This document shows, in pieces, positions 3,733 to 62,646 of a stretch of DNA of 64,000 nt (positions are counted from its first letter, which is position 1; each line of letters starts with the position of its first letter). The stretch is from NCBI GenBank assembly GCA_020148045.1, contig JAHCRG010000004.1, positions 64,576 to 128,575 of the forward strand. Direction: 5' to 3'. The stretch is from Patescibacteria group bacterium (GTDB lineage: Bacteria; Patescibacteriota; Minisyncoccia; Minisyncoccales; GWA2-38-27). A program made the position numbers and the translations under genes. The notes beneath the pieces are model-generated. The model worked only from the letters and a program-made list of their open reading frames with translations, was not told the origin of the DNA and did not search any database.

Positions 3733-3930
3733 ATGAAACCGTTAAATGTTTTAGGGTTAATAGTTTTTTTTATCGGAATTTTTATCTTAATTGGGTTTGG
3801 ATTGTATAAGTTTTTTGAAAACACGGAAATTCCATTTATAGTAAGGTGGGGGATTATTGCAATAATATTGGGAGTAATTATTATTCTAATATCTCTTATT
3901 AGAGAAAGAATAAAAGAAAAAAAATTATGA
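3733..3930 (+). CDS. small two-helix membrane protein, hypothetical
   Basis: 65 aa with two long hydrophobic stretches. The stop overlaps the start of the ybjQ-like gene (ATGA junction), which suggests translational coupling. Confidence 0.5.
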   Translation: MKPLNVLGLIVFFIGIFILIGFGLYKFFENTEIPFIVRWGIIAIILGVIIILISLIRERIKEKKL

Positions 3931-4291: not shown

Positions 4292-4777
4292 ATGCTAAAG
4301 ATTAAAAAATCATTTAAAACTGGTTTAAGTTTTGGCTTAACTTCTGGAATAATTACTACGCTTGGTTTAATGGTTGGACTACATTCAGGTACTCACTCAA
4401 GGCTTGTGGTTATAGGGGGGATATTAATAATAGCAATAGCCGATAGCCTTTCAGATGCTTTAGGTATTCACATCTCTGAAGAGTCAGAAAGCGAGCATTC
4501 CTCAAAAGAGATATGGGAATCAACAATTTCTACTTTTTTATCTAAGTTAATTTTCGCCTTAACATTTATTATTCCAATTTTGCTTTTTGAGTTTCCAATA
4601 GCGATTTTAGTAAGTGTAATTTGGGGATTATTTGTCCTAAGTATTCTTAGTTTTTACCTTGCTAAAGAGCAAAATATAAAGCCCCAGAAAGCAATCGCAG
4701 AGCATTTGTTTATCGCATTGGTAGTTATAGTTATAACCCATTATCTCGGCGACTGGATATCAACAACATTTGGTTAA
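4292..4777 (+). CDS. VIT1/CCC1-like small membrane protein (tentative)
   Basis: 161 aa with four or five TM helices. It has a Gly-rich first helix (GLSFGLTSGIITTLGLMVG) and an acidic loop (SEESESEHS). The family call rests on pattern memory only. Confidence 0.4.
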   Translation: MLKIKKSFKTGLSFGLTSGIITTLGLMVGLHSGTHSRLVVIGGILIIAIADSLSDALGIHISEESESEHSSKEIWESTISTFLSKLIFALTFIIPILLFEFPIAILVSVIWGLFVLSILSFYLAKEQNIKPQKAIAEHLFIALVVIVITHYLGDWISTTFG

Positions 4778-4781
4778 GCTA

Positions 4782-4810
4782 TTGATAATTTTTTTTAGAT
4801 ATGTTAAGAT
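4782..4810 (+). promoter_or_regulatory. sigma70-type promoter TTGATA-17-TAAGAT with TGn extended -10
   Basis: TTGATA at 4782-4787, a 17-nt spacer ending in TGT, TAAGAT at 4805-4810. It would drive the ORF-free tandem-repeat unit. Confidence 0.5.
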
Positions 4811-4850
4811 AAAAAATTCCAAATTACGTCGGGAAAAGAGAGTCCCTGAT

Positions 4851-5018
4851 GGCAGAAGGGGAGAAACAAGGTAAGATGAAACTAACATCCTGTTGTTAAG
4901 TTTTACTTTAGTGCCTAAGGCGTCTTCCTTCTGGGGCAGAAGGGGAGAAATAAGGTAAGACGAAACTAACATCCTGTTGTTAAGTTTTACTTTAGTGCCT
5001 AAGGCGCCTTCCTTCTGG
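4851..5018 (+). repeat. tandem direct repeat, 2 x 84 nt, 81/84 identical
   Basis: Copy 1 spans 4851-4934 and copy 2 spans 4935-5018. The only differences are three C/T transitions (repeat positions 17, 27 and 73). Confidence 0.95.
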
Positions 5019-5106
5019 GAAACTCGTTGTTTTCTAACTTTCATACTCTCTTTTCTCAATTTATTGTTCTTTGTACCCAAGTGGGCTGTAATAGCCCCTA
5101 ATACGG

Positions 5107-5139
5107 AGTCCTTAAGGCAAACCCTTAAGGACTTTTTTT
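5107..5139 (+). terminator. intrinsic terminator
   Basis: AGTCCTTAAGG (5107-5117), loop caaac, CCTTAAGGACT (5123-5133), then T6. Confidence 0.8.
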
Positions 5140-5140
5140 G

Positions 5141-5167
5141 TTGACATAATTAGAAATATTGTATAAT
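5141..5167 (+). promoter_or_regulatory. possible promoter TTGACA-15-TATAAT (short spacer)
   Basis: TTGACA at 5141-5146 and TATAAT at 5162-5167, preceded by TG. The 15-nt spacer is sub-optimal, so this is uncertain. Confidence 0.35.
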
Positions 5168-5226: not shown

Positions 5227-6063
5227 ATGAATCCGATTAGATTAACCAAAGAGGTGACTATTAAAGGCCCTAATTTATGGGGATTAAAAGCTAAGCTTAC
5301 ATTTTCTCCATTAAATTCAAGATATGGCTGGGTGTGGCAAAGTAATAGGTTATTTTTTATCTCAATAAATCCTTCAATTGTTGATGACAAAGCATGGGGA
5401 ACAAGGCTTTATTTTCAAGGTAAAAAACTGCAGATTTTTGAACACATAGGTGTTTTACACTGGTTTGGACTTTGTGGGCTTTCTATTAGATCTAGTTCTT
5501 GGCCACCATATTATGGACGTTCATTGGAGTTCTGGCAAGCAATAAAGCCGTATTGTGAAGAAGATACTTCCAAAGAAATTAATTGGTACACTCTAAGGAA
5601 ACCAGTTCGCTGGACTTATCCTAAACCAAGAAACAATCAAATAGCTTTTACAGAAATCCGTCCAAACACTAAAAAAGAGCTTAAAATAGAAGTAACCTGT
5701 AACTATTCAGGTATGGGTGCTTGGACAGAGTATTTTTCTTTTCCAGATGATAAAGAACTTGAACAATTATGCGCTGTCTATAATCAGGGCTGGCCTCCAA
5801 TTTTGTATTATCTTTTAAAGGTACCCCCATTTTTTGGATGGCCTCATCATAAAACTGCCATATGGGTTCAGGAAAGAGGGAAAGGGTTAACAACCTTAAG
5901 GCAGTTTATAAAACATCGGGCAGCTGATTTGCTTGGAACATTGAGTTTGCTTTGCCGAAATGATGGTCTGTTATCTGCTAATGTTACTTCGGTTTGCTCC
6001 GGCCACAAGGCTGATATTGAGGCAGTGCTTCAAGCAAATGAATTGCTTTATCAGCTTGAATAA
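5227..6063 (+). CDS. divergent LpxC-family (UDP-3-O-acyl-GlcNAc deacetylase-like) metallo-deacetylase homologue
   Basis: By-eye alignment to E. coli LpxC gives three matches. IFEHIGVLHWFGLCGLSI pairs with TVEHLNAALAGLGIDNIVI (E78/H79). FIKHRAADLLGTLSL pairs with FVRHKMLDAIGDLFM (H238/D242). CSGHKADIEAVLQA pairs with KSGHALNNKLLQAVLA (H265). Confidence 0.6.
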   Translation: MNPIRLTKEVTIKGPNLWGLKAKLTFSPLNSRYGWVWQSNRLFFISINPSIVDDKAWGTRLYFQGKKLQIFEHIGVLHWFGLCGLSIRSSSWPPYYGRSLEFWQAIKPYCEEDTSKEINWYTLRKPVRWTYPKPRNNQIAFTEIRPNTKKELKIEVTCNYSGMGAWTEYFSFPDDKELEQLCAVYNQGWPPILYYLLKVPPFFGWPHHKTAIWVQERGKGLTTLRQFIKHRAADLLGTLSLLCRNDGLLSANVTSVCSGHKADIEAVLQANELLYQLE

Positions 6064-58947: not shown

Positions 58948-59070
58948 TCTGAAGGTAAAAATTAAATATGATTTATTAGTACTGCTCAGCTCAAGGCATT
59001 ACTGCCCTTATACTTGCAGCCTATCAACCTCGTCATCTTCGAGGAATCTATGAATCCTAATCTTGTGGTG

Positions 59071-59103
<33 letters not shown>

Positions 59104-59232
59104 CTTCCCGACATAGCTACCCAGCGATGCTCTTGGCAGAACAGCTGGTAGACCAGAGGTCAGTTCAGTCCGGTCCTCTCGTACTAGGACCAAATCCACT
59201 CAAGATTCGACGCCTGCGGTAGATAGGGACCA

Positions 59233-59267
<35 letters not shown>

Positions 59268-59916
59268 ACGCTTTAATTGGCGAACAGCCAAACCCTTGGG
59301 AGCGGTTCCACCCCCAGGATGCGTTGAGCCGACATCGAGGTCTCGAACAGGGCCGTTGATATGGACTCGCGGGCCCTACTAAGCTGTTATCCCCGGGGTA
59401 ACTTTTGGCTGATGATCTTCGGATTTTCTATAAAAATCCGTCGGTTCACTAAGTTCTGGTTTCCCAACTGCGCGGTATATCCACCTTGCAGTAAAGCCGG
59501 CTTTTGGCTTTGCCCGATCACTCCGATTTCCATCCGGAGCTAGCCGACCTTTAAACGCCTCCATTACCTTTTAGGAGGCAAGTGCCCCACTTAAACTGTC
59601 CGTTAGAAACTGTATCCCGCTGAGCGGGGTTAGAATTAAGATTTTGAAAGAAAGGTGTTTCATTGACGACTCTACTCTGCCCGAAAGCAGAGCTTCAAAG
59701 TCTCCCTTCTACGCTACGCATCCAAAACCAAAACTCAATATCTAACTACAGTAAAGCTCCCGGGGTCTTTCCGTCTAGCCGCAGGTAACCGGCATCTTTA
59801 CCGGTATTGCATTTTCACCGAGCTGCTCCTGGAGACAGTTCCCTAGTCGTGAAGCCTTTCATGCGGGCCGTAACTTACACGGCAAGAGACTACGCTACCT
59901 TTGGACGGTTATAGTT

Positions 59917-60621
59917 CATCTGTCTCCTTATATCGCTATAAAGTATGGACCATATCTTCACCCTTCACTTTTAGCTAAAAATGAAGGGGCTTGGCGTATG
60001 GCCTCTGAGGATTCTTTTAGTAAGAGTTAAGAATTTGCTTTTTGGAATATTTTCTTTTTCGACCTACAACAATTAAATCTCTTAATTTTAAGATTTCTTT
60101 CATGCCATCTCTTTCTAAATGTCTCTTTTGATTAATTATCTTAACAATTTTACAGAAAATTTCAAAAACTTTTTTCTTATTTTTTGATAAAAAAGAATAA
60201 TTTTTGAAAAAAGGAATTATAATTTCTGTAAGATCTTTTAGTCTTCTTACTTCGAAATAACATATCCCATCTTTTCGATAACGAATTGTCCCACAATTTA
60301 AGACATTCTTAAATATTTTAGGAACAGTATCATCTTTTTGAGATATATTAAACGATAAACTGACTTTCCATCCGTATTTATAATCATCCCATCTATTTAT
60401 TATTGAGACATTAAAACTTCCTTCTCCATCAGCAAATCCACTTAAATAATATCTTGTGCTCTTACTAAAAGTCTTTCCTGCTGATTGACCGCAATTGAAC
60501 ATTTTCACTGTCATTAATTTATTATACAAATTAACGGCGAGTAGTTCAATATACCCGGTGTTCCCAGCATATAGCCAAGTTTTTTCTTAGAAATTATTTT
60601 CTAAGAGCGGCAACTTTCTTA
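59917..60621 (-). mobile_element. group I intron in the 23S helix-69 loop, carrying a LAGLIDADG ORF
   Basis: The exon junction restores GGCGGU|AACUAUAACCGUCC (E. coli GGCCGUAACUAUAACGGUCC). P1 is exon GCGGU paired with intron GCCGC, with a U.G wobble at the splice site. P2 is UCUUAGAAA auaa UUUCUAAGA. P3 is CUUGGC/GCCAAG. P7 is GGCCAUA/UAUGG(U)CC inside an S-like GAAGAUAUGGUCC. P8 is a long hairpin. P9 has a GCGA loop. The terminal nucleotide is G. Confidence 0.85.
60017..60514 (-). CDS. LAGLIDADG homing endonuclease (single-motif, homodimer type)
   Basis: YLSGFADGEGSFNVSI LAGLIDADG motif. About 165 aa from the ATG at 60514 (the track ORF starts at TTG 60529). It lies inside the intron in the same orientation as the rRNA. 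Confidence 0.88.
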   Translation of the reverse strand: MTVKMFNCGQSAGKTFSKSTRYYLSGFADGEGSFNVSIINRWDDYKYGWKVSLSFNISQKDDTVPKIFKNVLNCGTIRYRKDGICYFEVRRLKDLTEIIIPFFKNYSFLSKNKKKVFEIFCKIVKIINQKRHLERDGMKEILKLRDLIVVGRKRKYSKKQILNSY

Positions 60622-62024
60622 CCGCCGACGTTCACTGGCGCTTCGCTCACTCAGCCCACACCGAAGCGCGGACTGGCGAGGTTAACGTTCCAGCACTGGT
60701 CAGGCCTCAACCCCTATACATCCTCTTACGAGTTAAGCAGGGATTTGTGTTTTTGATAAACAGTCGCCAGGGTTCTTTCGCTGCGGCCCCGCCTAGGGCG
60801 GGGCAGTCCATATTGCGAACTTACGGACGCTTTTTTGCCGAGTTCCTTCAGGAGCTTTCACTCGTTCACCTTGGTGCTCTTACACCCGCCTACCTGTGTC
60901 GGTTTACGGTACGGGCCCTTCATCTTTTTAAATTTCTTTAAGGTTTTTCTGGGAAATCTGCTCAATGGAGTTCACTCGCCCGAAGACGAGCTTCCCGTCA
61001 ATCCTTGAAAATTCTTAGATTGACGACGAGAATCCAATAACTCGCTTCATCTACTAGATTCCGTCACCTTATTGAAAAAGGTAAAGGGGGGCCGGAATAT
61101 TAACCGGCTGTCCATCTCCCGAGACCTTTCGGTCGAGGGATTAGGCCCGCCTAACCCTTGGATGATTGCCATTGCCAAGGAAACCTTAGGCTTTCGGTGT
61201 GCGGGGCTTTCACCCGCATTGCGGTTACTTATGCCAACATTCTCACTCCTTAGCGCTCCACCAAACTTTACAGTTTGACTTCACAGCACTAAAGACGCTC
61301 CCCTACCCCAAACACATAACAAGTTATGTGCTTGGTCTTATCTTCGGTACCAAGCTTAAGCCCCGTAAATTTTCGGCGCAAAACTCCTTAGCTAGTAAGC
61401 TGTTACGCACTTTTTAAAGGATAGCTGCTTCTGAGCTAACCTCCTAGCTATCAGAGGAATTTTACTTCCTTTAAAACACTTAGCTCGGTTTAGGGACCTT
61501 AGATGAAGATTTGGGCTGTTTCCCTTTTGACTATGGAGCTTAGCCCCCACAGTCTAACTGCCGACATTCAAAGATTGGTATTCGGAGTTTGGTTGGAGAA
61601 TCTAGGTAAAACCCACGAAACCCCATCCAGTGCTCTACCTCCAATCTCTACAAATCGACGCTAGCCCTAAAGCTATTTCGGGGAGAACCAGCTATTACCA
61701 AGCTCGATTAGCTTTTCACTCCTTACCACAGCTCATCCCAGAGTATTGCACGGCTCACGGGTTCGGGCCTCCCCCTGCTTTTCAGCGGGGTTCACCCTGG
61801 CTATGGCAAGCTCGCTTGGCTTCGGGTCCCGAGTACTTTCTGAAACGCGCTTTTAACACTTGGTTTCCCTGAGCCTTCGCGGCGGAACCGCTTAGACAAA
61901 GAAAGTGCTCGGACTCGTTGGCTCATTCTTCAATAGGCACGCCATTACCCACGATAAAATCGGGGCTCTGACTCCTTGTGGACAAGATGGTTTCAGGTTC
62001 TATTTCACCGCCCTCACCGGGCTG

Positions 62025-62059
<35 letters not shown>

Positions 62060-62646
62060 TGGGGATATCAAAGTATTTAGCCTTGGCCAATTAGTTTGGC
62101 CTGCTTCCCACAGGATTCTCATTTCCCGTGGTACTCAAGTAAGATAGCAAGGAGCATAAAGTGATTTTCAAATACGGGACTATTACCCTCTATGGTGCCC
62201 CTTTCCAGGGTGCTTCTCTTAACCAAACTTTATCTAAATATTCTCCCTCGGTAAGCATTCCTATGCACCAGGAATACTCCCGACACTACCTCCTTACAAC
62301 CACCGCTCGTGCGTAAAGCATGAACGATTTTGGGCTCTTCCCTGTTCGCTCGCCGCTACTAAGGGAATAAAAAGTTTTTCTCTTTTCCTCCGCTTACTGA
62401 GATGTTTCACTTCAGCGGGTTTAGCTGCCCAGTCATTCGACCGGGCCGATTTTGCTTATCGCAAAATCAGGTTTCCCCATTCGGAAATCCCCGGATCAAA
62501 GGTTGCTAAACACCTCCCCGAGGCTTATCGCAGTCACGCCACGTCCTTCATCGCCTCGATATCCCAAGGCATCCACCATCTGCCCTTAAAATACAATTTT
62601 TACCTTTAACTCACCCTCACATCCGCCATGGGCGGGTAATGATGAG

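Follow-up and report, generated by a model that had tools for sequence, protein, structure and literature searches.

A probable stand-alone small RNA gene with a lineage-specific arm duplication in Patescibacteria

The RNA gene and its transcription signals

Patescibacteria, or bacteria of the candidate phyla radiation (CPR), have tiny genomes and are mostly unculturable. We analysed a stretch of 64,000 nt from a Patescibacteria group bacterium (contig JAHCRG010000004.1, positions 64,576 to 128,575 of the forward strand; hereafter the window), and describe here an RNA element located at window positions 4782–5139. This element lies between a gene encoding a VIT1-family transporter (Fe/Mn; 4292–4777, Pfam match) on its 5′ flank and a gene encoding an LpxC-family protein (5227–6063, weak Pfam match; hereafter the LpxC-like gene) on its 3′ flank. 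We consider it likely that the element is a functional stand-alone small RNA (sRNA) gene, one arm of which was duplicated in the lineage of the window. On the best reading it is new and previously undescribed, narrowly distributed in a few Patescibacteria, and belongs to no Rfam family.

A consensus scan recovered the promoter proposed in the first-pass annotation of this DNA. On the plus strand, the −35 box TTGATA (4782–4787) is followed, after a 17-nt spacer, by an extended −10 element consisting of TG (4802–4803) and TAAGAT (4805–4810). The strong terminator of that annotation was likewise recovered, as an intrinsic terminator at 5105–5139 (+) with a 13-bp stem (5105–5135), the loop CAAAC and a run of seven U residues (5133–5139). 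The predicted transcript (4811–5139, +) would be approximately 325 nt in length, with a putative transcription start site at around 4816–4818 and its 3′ end in the U-tract. The promoter of the LpxC-like gene, TTGACA-15-TATAAT (5141–5167, +), is outside the RNA and marks the 3′ limit of the unit. The promoter, the U-tract and both the constant and the variable G·U pairs, many of which are valid only on the plus strand, identify this strand as the transcribed one. A structured non-coding RNA would thus be made from the plus strand by its own extended −10 promoter and ended at its own terminator.

Homologues of the RNA gene and their gene contexts

A search for the RNA in relatives, proposed in the first-pass annotation, was performed on contigs carrying relatives of the LpxC-like protein and close relatives of VIT1. 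Using an nhmmer profile, we detected the RNA in three further lineages, L008/L009/L010 (hereafter L008–10), L019 and L087, with E-values from 1e-63 to 1e-75. The LpxC-like protein of L008–10 is 71% identical to that of the window, the VIT1 protein of L019 is 96% identical to that of the window, and L087 originates from a marine sediment sample. The gene order is VIT1, RNA and LpxC-like gene in the window; VIT1, RNA and the 3′ end of a convergent fmt gene in L019 and L087, in which the LpxC-like gene is absent; and a remnant of a 65-aa gene of the window, RNA and LpxC-like gene in L008–10. The similarity between homologues extends from the −35 box to the terminator U-tract across these three gene contexts, so the boundaries of the gene, and its conservation in different neighbourhoods, are clear. 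This agrees with the fallback explanation in the first-pass annotation, namely, an independent sRNA of approximately 330 nt with its own promoter and terminator. L008, L019 and L087 retain this promoter (the −10 box being TAAAAT in L087), and the terminator is conserved in all homologues of the RNA, with a different and longer loop, together with G-C to G·U changes, in L019 and L087. The length of the RNA varies, from approximately 205 nt in the shortest homologues to approximately 325 nt in the window.

No terminator was found between the VIT1 stop codon and the RNA in the window, L019 or L087, and where VIT1 is present, its mRNA might therefore also yield the RNA at its 3′ end. The RNA could even be a cis-acting module of the VIT1 3′ untranslated region (UTR) and terminator, involved in mRNA stability or processing, with no independent gene. 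The position of the RNA directly 3′ of the VIT1 stop codon in these three lineages speaks for this explanation, as does the retention in L008 of an upstream remnant of the same gene island. However, the RNA and its promoter persist in L008–10, in which VIT1 is gone. The −35 and −10 boxes are conserved and the similarity begins at the −35 box. Furthermore, VIT1 is 97% identical among genomes whose RNA differs by 12–19%, indicating that gene and RNA evolve separately, and VIT1 persists in L088 without the RNA. A 3′ UTR module of this kind is thus improbable, and an independent gene remains the preferred explanation.

Three further observations concern these loci. First, a short open reading frame (ORF) at 1376–1435 of L008 (MKPLNVLGLIIFSAVRLVK, then a stop codon) resembles a truncated remnant of the gene for a 65-aa membrane protein in the window (3733–3930); the block consisting of the 65-aa gene, YbjQ and VIT1 seems to have been deleted in the L008 lineage, with retention of the RNA gene. 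Second, the VIT1 genes (window 4292–4777, L019 1247–1732 and L087 559–1044) share 97% nucleotide identity, with 89–95% identity at fourfold degenerate sites, beside an RNA that is 81–88% identical and an fmt gene that is 89% identical (74% at fourfold degenerate sites). VIT1 homologues at approximately 75% aa identity are present in archaea and other phyla. This pattern suggests that VIT1 was recently exchanged between lineages by horizontal transfer, and the boundary at the VIT1 stop codon is sharp. Third, the fmt ORF of L019 as called (1975–2859, −) enters the terminator hairpin of the RNA (approximately 1966–2001), which may serve there as the end of both transcripts, RNA and fmt.

The tandem repeat and the history of the P2 arm

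The most prominent feature of the element in the window is a tandem repeat. Tandem Repeats Finder detected a single array at 4851–5019, with a period of 84, 2.0 copies, 96% matches and a score of 317; no other repeat in the window comes close to it in strength. A separate repeat search of the window gave the copies 4851–4934 and 4935–5018 with 96% identity, and a 34-nt core pattern matched the two copies only, against a chance expectation of 0. The copies differ by three transitions (C/T at 4867/4951, T/C at 4877/4961 and T/C at 4923/5007), corresponding to a divergence of 3.6%. The 84-nt repeat with three C/T transitions, as first annotated, was thus confirmed by both searches and by direct reading. 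The two differences located in stems exchange G·U and G-C, with pairing kept. The first-pass annotation placed the third transition, a change from G·U to G-C, in the closing helix; it does affect a closing pair, but that of the small apical hairpin GUGCC-UAA-GGCG(U/C), not of the long CAGAAGG/CCUUCUG helix. The junction of copy 1 to copy 2 reads CCUUCUGG|GGCAGAAGG, also given as ...CCTTCTGG|GGCAGAAGG..., and the endpoints of the duplication share a GG microhomology.

We considered the repeat as a possible assembly artefact, a concern raised at the time of first annotation. The scaffold of the window is available as ENA scaffold ZHAO22-1_SAMN13740702 scaffold_26 (L002). The same sample (SRR10836662) has also been assembled independently in Logan (L001); that assembly is identical to the window, and its first base corresponds exactly to position 4977, which is the start of the first 31-mer holding the copy-2-specific base 5007. 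The Logan assembly uses k=31, and a de Bruijn assembler cannot invent the k-mers of a unit-to-unit junction. A break at 4977 is expected of a true tandem repeat, since the two exits of the repeat never re-converge in a k=31 de Bruijn graph. An artefact is therefore unlikely.

An alignment of the homologues (A3) established the history of this arm. The homologous unit is a single 44-nt copy in L008 and L087 (GGCAGAAGGGGAGAAAUGAG-GUGMCUAAGGCAC-CUUCCUUCUGA) and a single 85-nt copy in L019, in which an AU-rich hairpin of approximately 40 nt is inserted in the bulge; two units of 84 nt were found only in the window among the sampled lineages. Of the lineages sampled, the window lineage alone thus has the tandem architecture. 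The first-pass annotation had named a recent duplication unique to this genome as a refutation of its proposal; the repeat did prove to be such a duplication, while the RNA gene itself has homologues in three further lineages. The P2 arm is plastic, passing from a bare arm of 44 nt to an arm with the inserted hairpin and then, in the window only, to a head-to-tail duplication of the whole 84-nt arm. No second copy of the RNA, the arm or the inserted hairpin was found elsewhere in the window, and the inserted hairpin gave 0 matches in IMG/VR.

Predicted fold of the RNA

The z-score of the minimum free energy (MFE) was −5.6 on the plus strand and −2.6 on the minus strand of the window, and −4.1 for L008. 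The RNAalifold consensus contained eight helices, namely, P1 (16 bp), a 2-bp element, the P2 stem, the core of the inserted hairpin, the P2 apical hairpin, P2b, P3 and the terminator. The predicted core fold common to the four lineages consists of a short 5′ leader, a junction closed by P1, the P2 arm, an optional P2b, a U/C-rich linker, P3 and the terminator.

In P1, the purine-rich 5′ strand GUCGGGAAAAGAGAGU (4828–4843, +) pairs with the pyrimidine-rich 3′ strand ACUCUCUUUUCUCAAU (5045–5060, +). This helix has 16 bp with 96% of the alignment cells paired, including one compensatory U-A/C-G pair and several A-U to G·U changes. A perfect 11-nt inverted repeat (4833–4843 and 5045–5055), missed in the first-pass annotation, encloses the whole tandem repeat and extends to this helix. 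The core of the P2 arm consists of the CAGAAGGGGAG/CUUCCUUCUG helix, a purine-rich bulge and a small apical hairpin. Arm 1 is copy 1 of the repeat (4851–4934, +), with its helix at 4853–4863/4924–4933, the inserted hairpin at approximately 4868–4911 and the apical hairpin at 4911–4923; arm 2 is copy 2 (4935–5018, +), with the corresponding elements at 4937–4947/5008–5017, approximately 4952–4995 and 4995–5007. The small hairpin P2b, GGAAAC-UCGUU-GUUUUC (5018–5034, +), was predicted by RNAalifold and has one compensatory G-C/A-U pair; it is not universal, as a 12-nt deletion in L019 removes its 3′ half. The U/C-rich linker UUAUUGUUCUUUGUACCC (5061–5079, +) is single-stranded in all folds, with 13 of its 22 alignment columns invariant. 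It is followed by the P3 hairpin AG-GGGCUG-UAA-UAGCCC-CU (5080–5099, +) and then by a conserved CCCCUAA. In P3 of L087 (GGGCCGUAACGGCCC), U-A is replaced by C-G in a compensatory manner, and G·U is replaced by G-C.

The consensus fold comprises 65 pairs, in which 98.4% of the cells are paired, compared with 46–64% when the partners were slid. Compensatory double changes were observed in three pairs (U-A/C-G in P1, G-C/A-U in P2b and U-A/C-G in P3), as opposed to none or one in the slid controls, and 10 of the 13 variable pairs never break. Invariant columns make up 85% of the paired and 64% of the unpaired positions.

Coding potential

The RNA element was treated as non-coding, as indicated by its sequence comparison. 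A minus-strand ORF of 106 aa spans both copies of the repeat in the window (84 nt corresponds to 28 codons), and is found in the window only; it was rejected as a gene, having no Pfam match and being broken in all three homologues. No ORF is conserved across the homologues on either strand, with the exception of one short U-rich frame on the plus strand (5027–5101 of the window, 24 codons, LFSNFHTLFSQFIVLCTQVGCNSP), the same register of which is open in all four homologues.

This frame raises the alternative that the RNA is the mRNA of a small hydrophobic peptide of 22–26 aa (LFxxFHTLFSRFIALC...), such as a type I toxin, with its translation locked by P1. Besides the open frame itself, two of its three indel events have lengths divisible by three, and the RNA shares its length and tight folding with toxin mRNAs. 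However, 13 of the 15 variable codon columns change the amino acid, and the non-conservative C/R, V/E and S/G changes coincide with compensatory changes of the P3 stem. No Shine–Dalgarno (SD) sequence is present at the proper distance, the start codon would be UUG or else an AUG that is absent from the window and L019, and the frame of L008 is shifted at the C-terminus. In addition, the U/C-rich composition alone predicts an open frame, and no antisense partner is evident. The predominance of non-synonymous substitutions, the L008 frameshift and the lack of a properly spaced SD sequence led us to reject a type I toxin or small-protein gene, and we regard the peptide explanation as very improbable.

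Relationship with the LpxC-like gene

The first-pass annotation favoured a riboswitch, in which two 84-nt aptamers would sense a ligand and control terminator read-through into the LpxC-like gene. The layout in the window alone, with a promoter, a structured repeat, a strong terminator and the LpxC-like gene 88 nt downstream, fits such a switch, and each 84-nt unit folds as a three-way junction (z-scores of −2.7 and −3.7). The homologues gave a different picture. L008, L087 and L019 have a single unit each, and L008 and L087 also lack the hairpin of approximately 40 nt, so the proposed aptamer is not conserved. No co-oriented gene follows the RNA in L019 and L087, in which the neighbouring gene is the convergent fmt.

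The LpxC-like gene has a promoter and 5′ UTR of its own. The TTGACA-15-TATAAT hexamers, considered a weak promoter at first, were found to be invariant in all seven LpxC-like loci compared (window, L003, L007, L008, L011, L013 and L014), whether or not the RNA is present, and the 5′ UTR of approximately 55 nt is well conserved across the same seven loci. The gene occurs without the RNA upstream in L003–L007, L011, L013 and L014. Since the LpxC-like gene has its own promoter and 5′ UTR and occurs without the RNA, and since the RNA occurs before a convergent fmt gene, the RNA is a transcription unit apart from the LpxC-like gene and not its leader.

In the MFE and consensus folds, the terminator showed no alternative partner. 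The suggested competition between CCUAAGG and the terminator turned out to be weak: L019 has CCUAAGU in place of the motif, and a bulge is required for the motif to pair with the terminator arm. Together with the lack of an Rfam match, the findings in the homologues leave a tandem-aptamer riboswitch with hardly any probability, and it is already refuted for practical purposes.

A type III toxin–antitoxin system was also considered and rejected, as the downstream protein matches Pfam LpxC only and the RNA and the LpxC-like gene occur independently. The LpxC-like protein family is very small (22 clusters in a database of 5.8 billion clusters), and the hosts of this gene probably lack lipopolysaccharide.

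Searches for known families and further copies

As in the first-pass annotation, in which the sequence was not recognized as any riboswitch or sRNA class, the comparison of the window region, L087 and L008 with Rfam 15 gave nothing at the gathering thresholds; the matches at E≤10 were at chance level and far below the gathering scores. A diverged 6S RNA, signal recognition particle RNA, transfer-messenger RNA (tmRNA) or RNase P RNA was rejected on the same search (no match at E≤10), and the ends of the RNA are not paired together as in 6S RNA. ARAGORN detected no tRNA or tmRNA in the region. In the literature, we found no described regulatory sRNA of Patescibacteria or CPR bacteria comparable to the RNA gene at 4782–5139.

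Sequence collections were scanned with exact patterns, which are insensitive. The exact P3-hairpin pattern gave four chance matches and no homologue in the JGI metagenomes, being so strict that it would miss L087 (L019 and L087 differ within the pattern). In the GTDB representative genomes, the 5′ pattern gave no match and the 3′ pattern gave one chance match (Prevotella). The 65 matches to a 16-nt pattern in IMG/VR were chance matches, all rejected by the nhmmer profile, and blastn against phage and plasmid collections gave no match. The CU-rich strand motif was not enriched in the window. Two other comparisons were dismissed: a Fur-box-like GATAAT in the promoter is not palindromic by eye, and analogies with TIGR arrays (PMC12045711), retrons, ToxI or CRISPR fail on the near-identical units, the lack of spacers and the lack of an associated protein gene.

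Evidence for and against a functional sRNA gene

Several observations weigh against a functional sRNA gene acting by base pairing. At least five related lineages lack the RNA at this position. In L088/L089 (790–880), the RNA gene is nearly all deleted, leaving a decayed remnant of the linker, P3 and terminator followed by a different gene, even though the VIT1 protein of L088 is identical to that of L087. Because of these absences and this deletion, the RNA gene is dispensable or accessory, and dispensable in some strains. Covariation was not significant, as the observed values were reached by 103 of 500 and 244 of 500 shuffles of an alignment with five rows from four lineages. With four independent lineages only and non-significant shuffle controls, the common structure is compatible with the data and supported by them, but not proven. 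The most invariant parts of the RNA are the strands of the P2 helix (20 of 21 columns; 5 of 7 in the purine-rich bulge), nearly invariant on both sides, rather than an obvious single-stranded seed; this invariance agrees no less well with a module that binds a protein or other partner than with an sRNA acting by base pairing. When duplexes between the conserved segments and 63 translation-initiation regions of the window were predicted, no outlier emerged save a spurious antisense ORF. The scans of JGI and GTDB, insensitive as such exact patterns are, yielded no further homologue.

Some of these points would also fit non-functional DNA, that is, a decaying remnant or neutral spacer of the VIT1 island in which the repeat is an inconsequential product of slippage: the distribution is patchy with a deletion in L088/L089, the repeat occurs in one genome only and the covariation is non-significant. 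This explanation does not agree with the level of constraint. The RNA is 81–92% identical in every pair of lineages. Between the window and L008 its identity is 85–86%, as opposed to 39% (fmt) and 64% (LpxC-like gene) at fourfold degenerate sites, and between the window and L019 it is 86–88%, as opposed to 74% at those of fmt. Identity of 85% is thus retained where the flanking genes are near saturation at synonymous sites, as they are in the most distant pair. The block has sharp limits that coincide with the promoter and terminator signals, and substitutions within it preferentially keep pairing. The G+C content of the element is 40.5%, compared with 35.2% for the window and 23% for the adjoining spacer. 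We therefore regard non-functional DNA as improbable, and a functional sRNA gene remains the likely identity of the element.

Possible mode of action

We infer that the RNA would act as a trans-acting regulator. As its mode of action we tentatively favour base pairing, on prior grounds and with somewhat less than even confidence. Three C-rich segments that are conserved and unpaired, namely, AUUCCA (leader), YCCUG (junction) and CCCCUAA (before the terminator), would be the candidate contacts with G-rich ribosome-binding regions; the P2 arm would then be a structural or partner-binding module. The linkage with YbjQ and VIT1 suggests a possible role in metal homeostasis.

Alternatively, the stand-alone RNA could be a sponge or scaffold for a protein or other macromolecule, in the manner of CsrB/RsmZ, with the P2 arm as the binding module and its duplication doubling the sites. 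The invariance of the P2 helix and bulge goes beyond the needs of structure alone, the arm tolerates both the insertion of a hairpin in its bulge and duplication as a whole, and both stem substitutions between the copies keep pairing. On the other hand, inspection of the sequence revealed no repeated ANGGA-type loop motif, a single arm is present in three of the four lineages and the surroundings of the RNA offer no candidate for a partner gene. A sponge or scaffold is unlikely on this evidence, although we give it more weight than the other alternatives to a base-pairing sRNA discussed above.

The strands of the P2 helix (window 4853–4863/5007–5017, and the equivalents in L087 and L008) resemble SD (AGAAGGGGAG) and anti-SD (CACCUUCCUUCU) sequences. 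The anti-SD tail of 16S rRNA, with which the P2 strand CACCUUCCUUCU was compared, is CACCUCCUUUCU; the 16S rRNA gene lies outside the window. A more speculative proposal, which we consider rather doubtful, is that the RNA represents a new modular regulatory RNA class in Patescibacteria, in which the SD- and anti-SD-like P2 arm would bind a protein or the translation apparatus, as a sponge or decoy gaining repeats, with the arm changing in size and copy number from one close lineage to another.

Comparison with known RNA systems

Among known systems, the nearest parallels are Hfq-independent stand-alone sRNAs with C-rich motifs, and sRNAs of the 3′ UTR type that have a promoter of their own. 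The element resembles the sRNAs RsaE/RoxS of Firmicutes and 6C of Actinobacteria in being stand-alone and non-coding, with a sigma-70-type promoter, an intrinsic terminator, several hairpins and conserved unpaired C-rich stretches, in an AT-rich genome and with a narrow phylogenetic range. It differs from them in having no similarity in sequence or covariance model, in its greater length (205–330 nt), in that its most conserved parts are helical and its seed is a candidate only, and in its host, an uncultivated lineage of Patescibacteria. 6C is a trans-encoded sRNA with C-rich unpaired motifs (PMC6486639).

sRNAs of the DapZ or MicL type belong to type I of the 3′ UTR-derived sRNAs and have an internal promoter. 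As in these cases, the RNA directly follows a coding gene (VIT1) with no terminator between them, has its own promoter at the end of the gene and shares the terminator of the mRNA; unlike in these cases, the promoter lies after the stop codon and not inside the ORF, and the RNA survives the loss of VIT1 in L008. The glycine and NAD+-I tandem riboswitches likewise have two adjacent units of similar fold before a terminator, a likeness restricted to the window genome. In contrast with these riboswitches, the homologues do not conserve the tandem, unit length ranges between 44 and 85 nt, no covariance model matches, no regulated gene is located downstream in two of the four lineages and the downstream gene has a separate promoter. 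With CsrB/RsmZ and ToxI, the element shares a repeated structured unit inside a non-coding transcript running from promoter to terminator, the number of units varying among relatives. It has one or two units of 44–85 nt rather than units of approximately 36 nt, and lacks both the GGA loop motifs of CsrB/RsmZ and the gene for a ToxN-like endoribonuclease that follows ToxI.

The locus thus offers a cleanly bounded, conserved and structured RNA gene with a readable evolutionary series for one arm, and a concrete candidate for metatranscriptomic confirmation and the building of a covariance model. It also shows that a tandem repeat flanked by a promoter and a terminator should not be named a tandem riboswitch without homologues. 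Given the narrow distribution of the RNA, its practical weight is modest.

An additional feature of the window

A 23S rRNA gene is located at 58957–62599 (−) of the window, with a length of 3643 nt compared with 2925 nt for the model. An ORF within it (60017–60529, −) matches the LAGLIDADG_1 homing endonuclease family (E 2e-20), and this gene presumably contains an intron. Introns in 23S rRNA genes are often seen in CPR bacteria.

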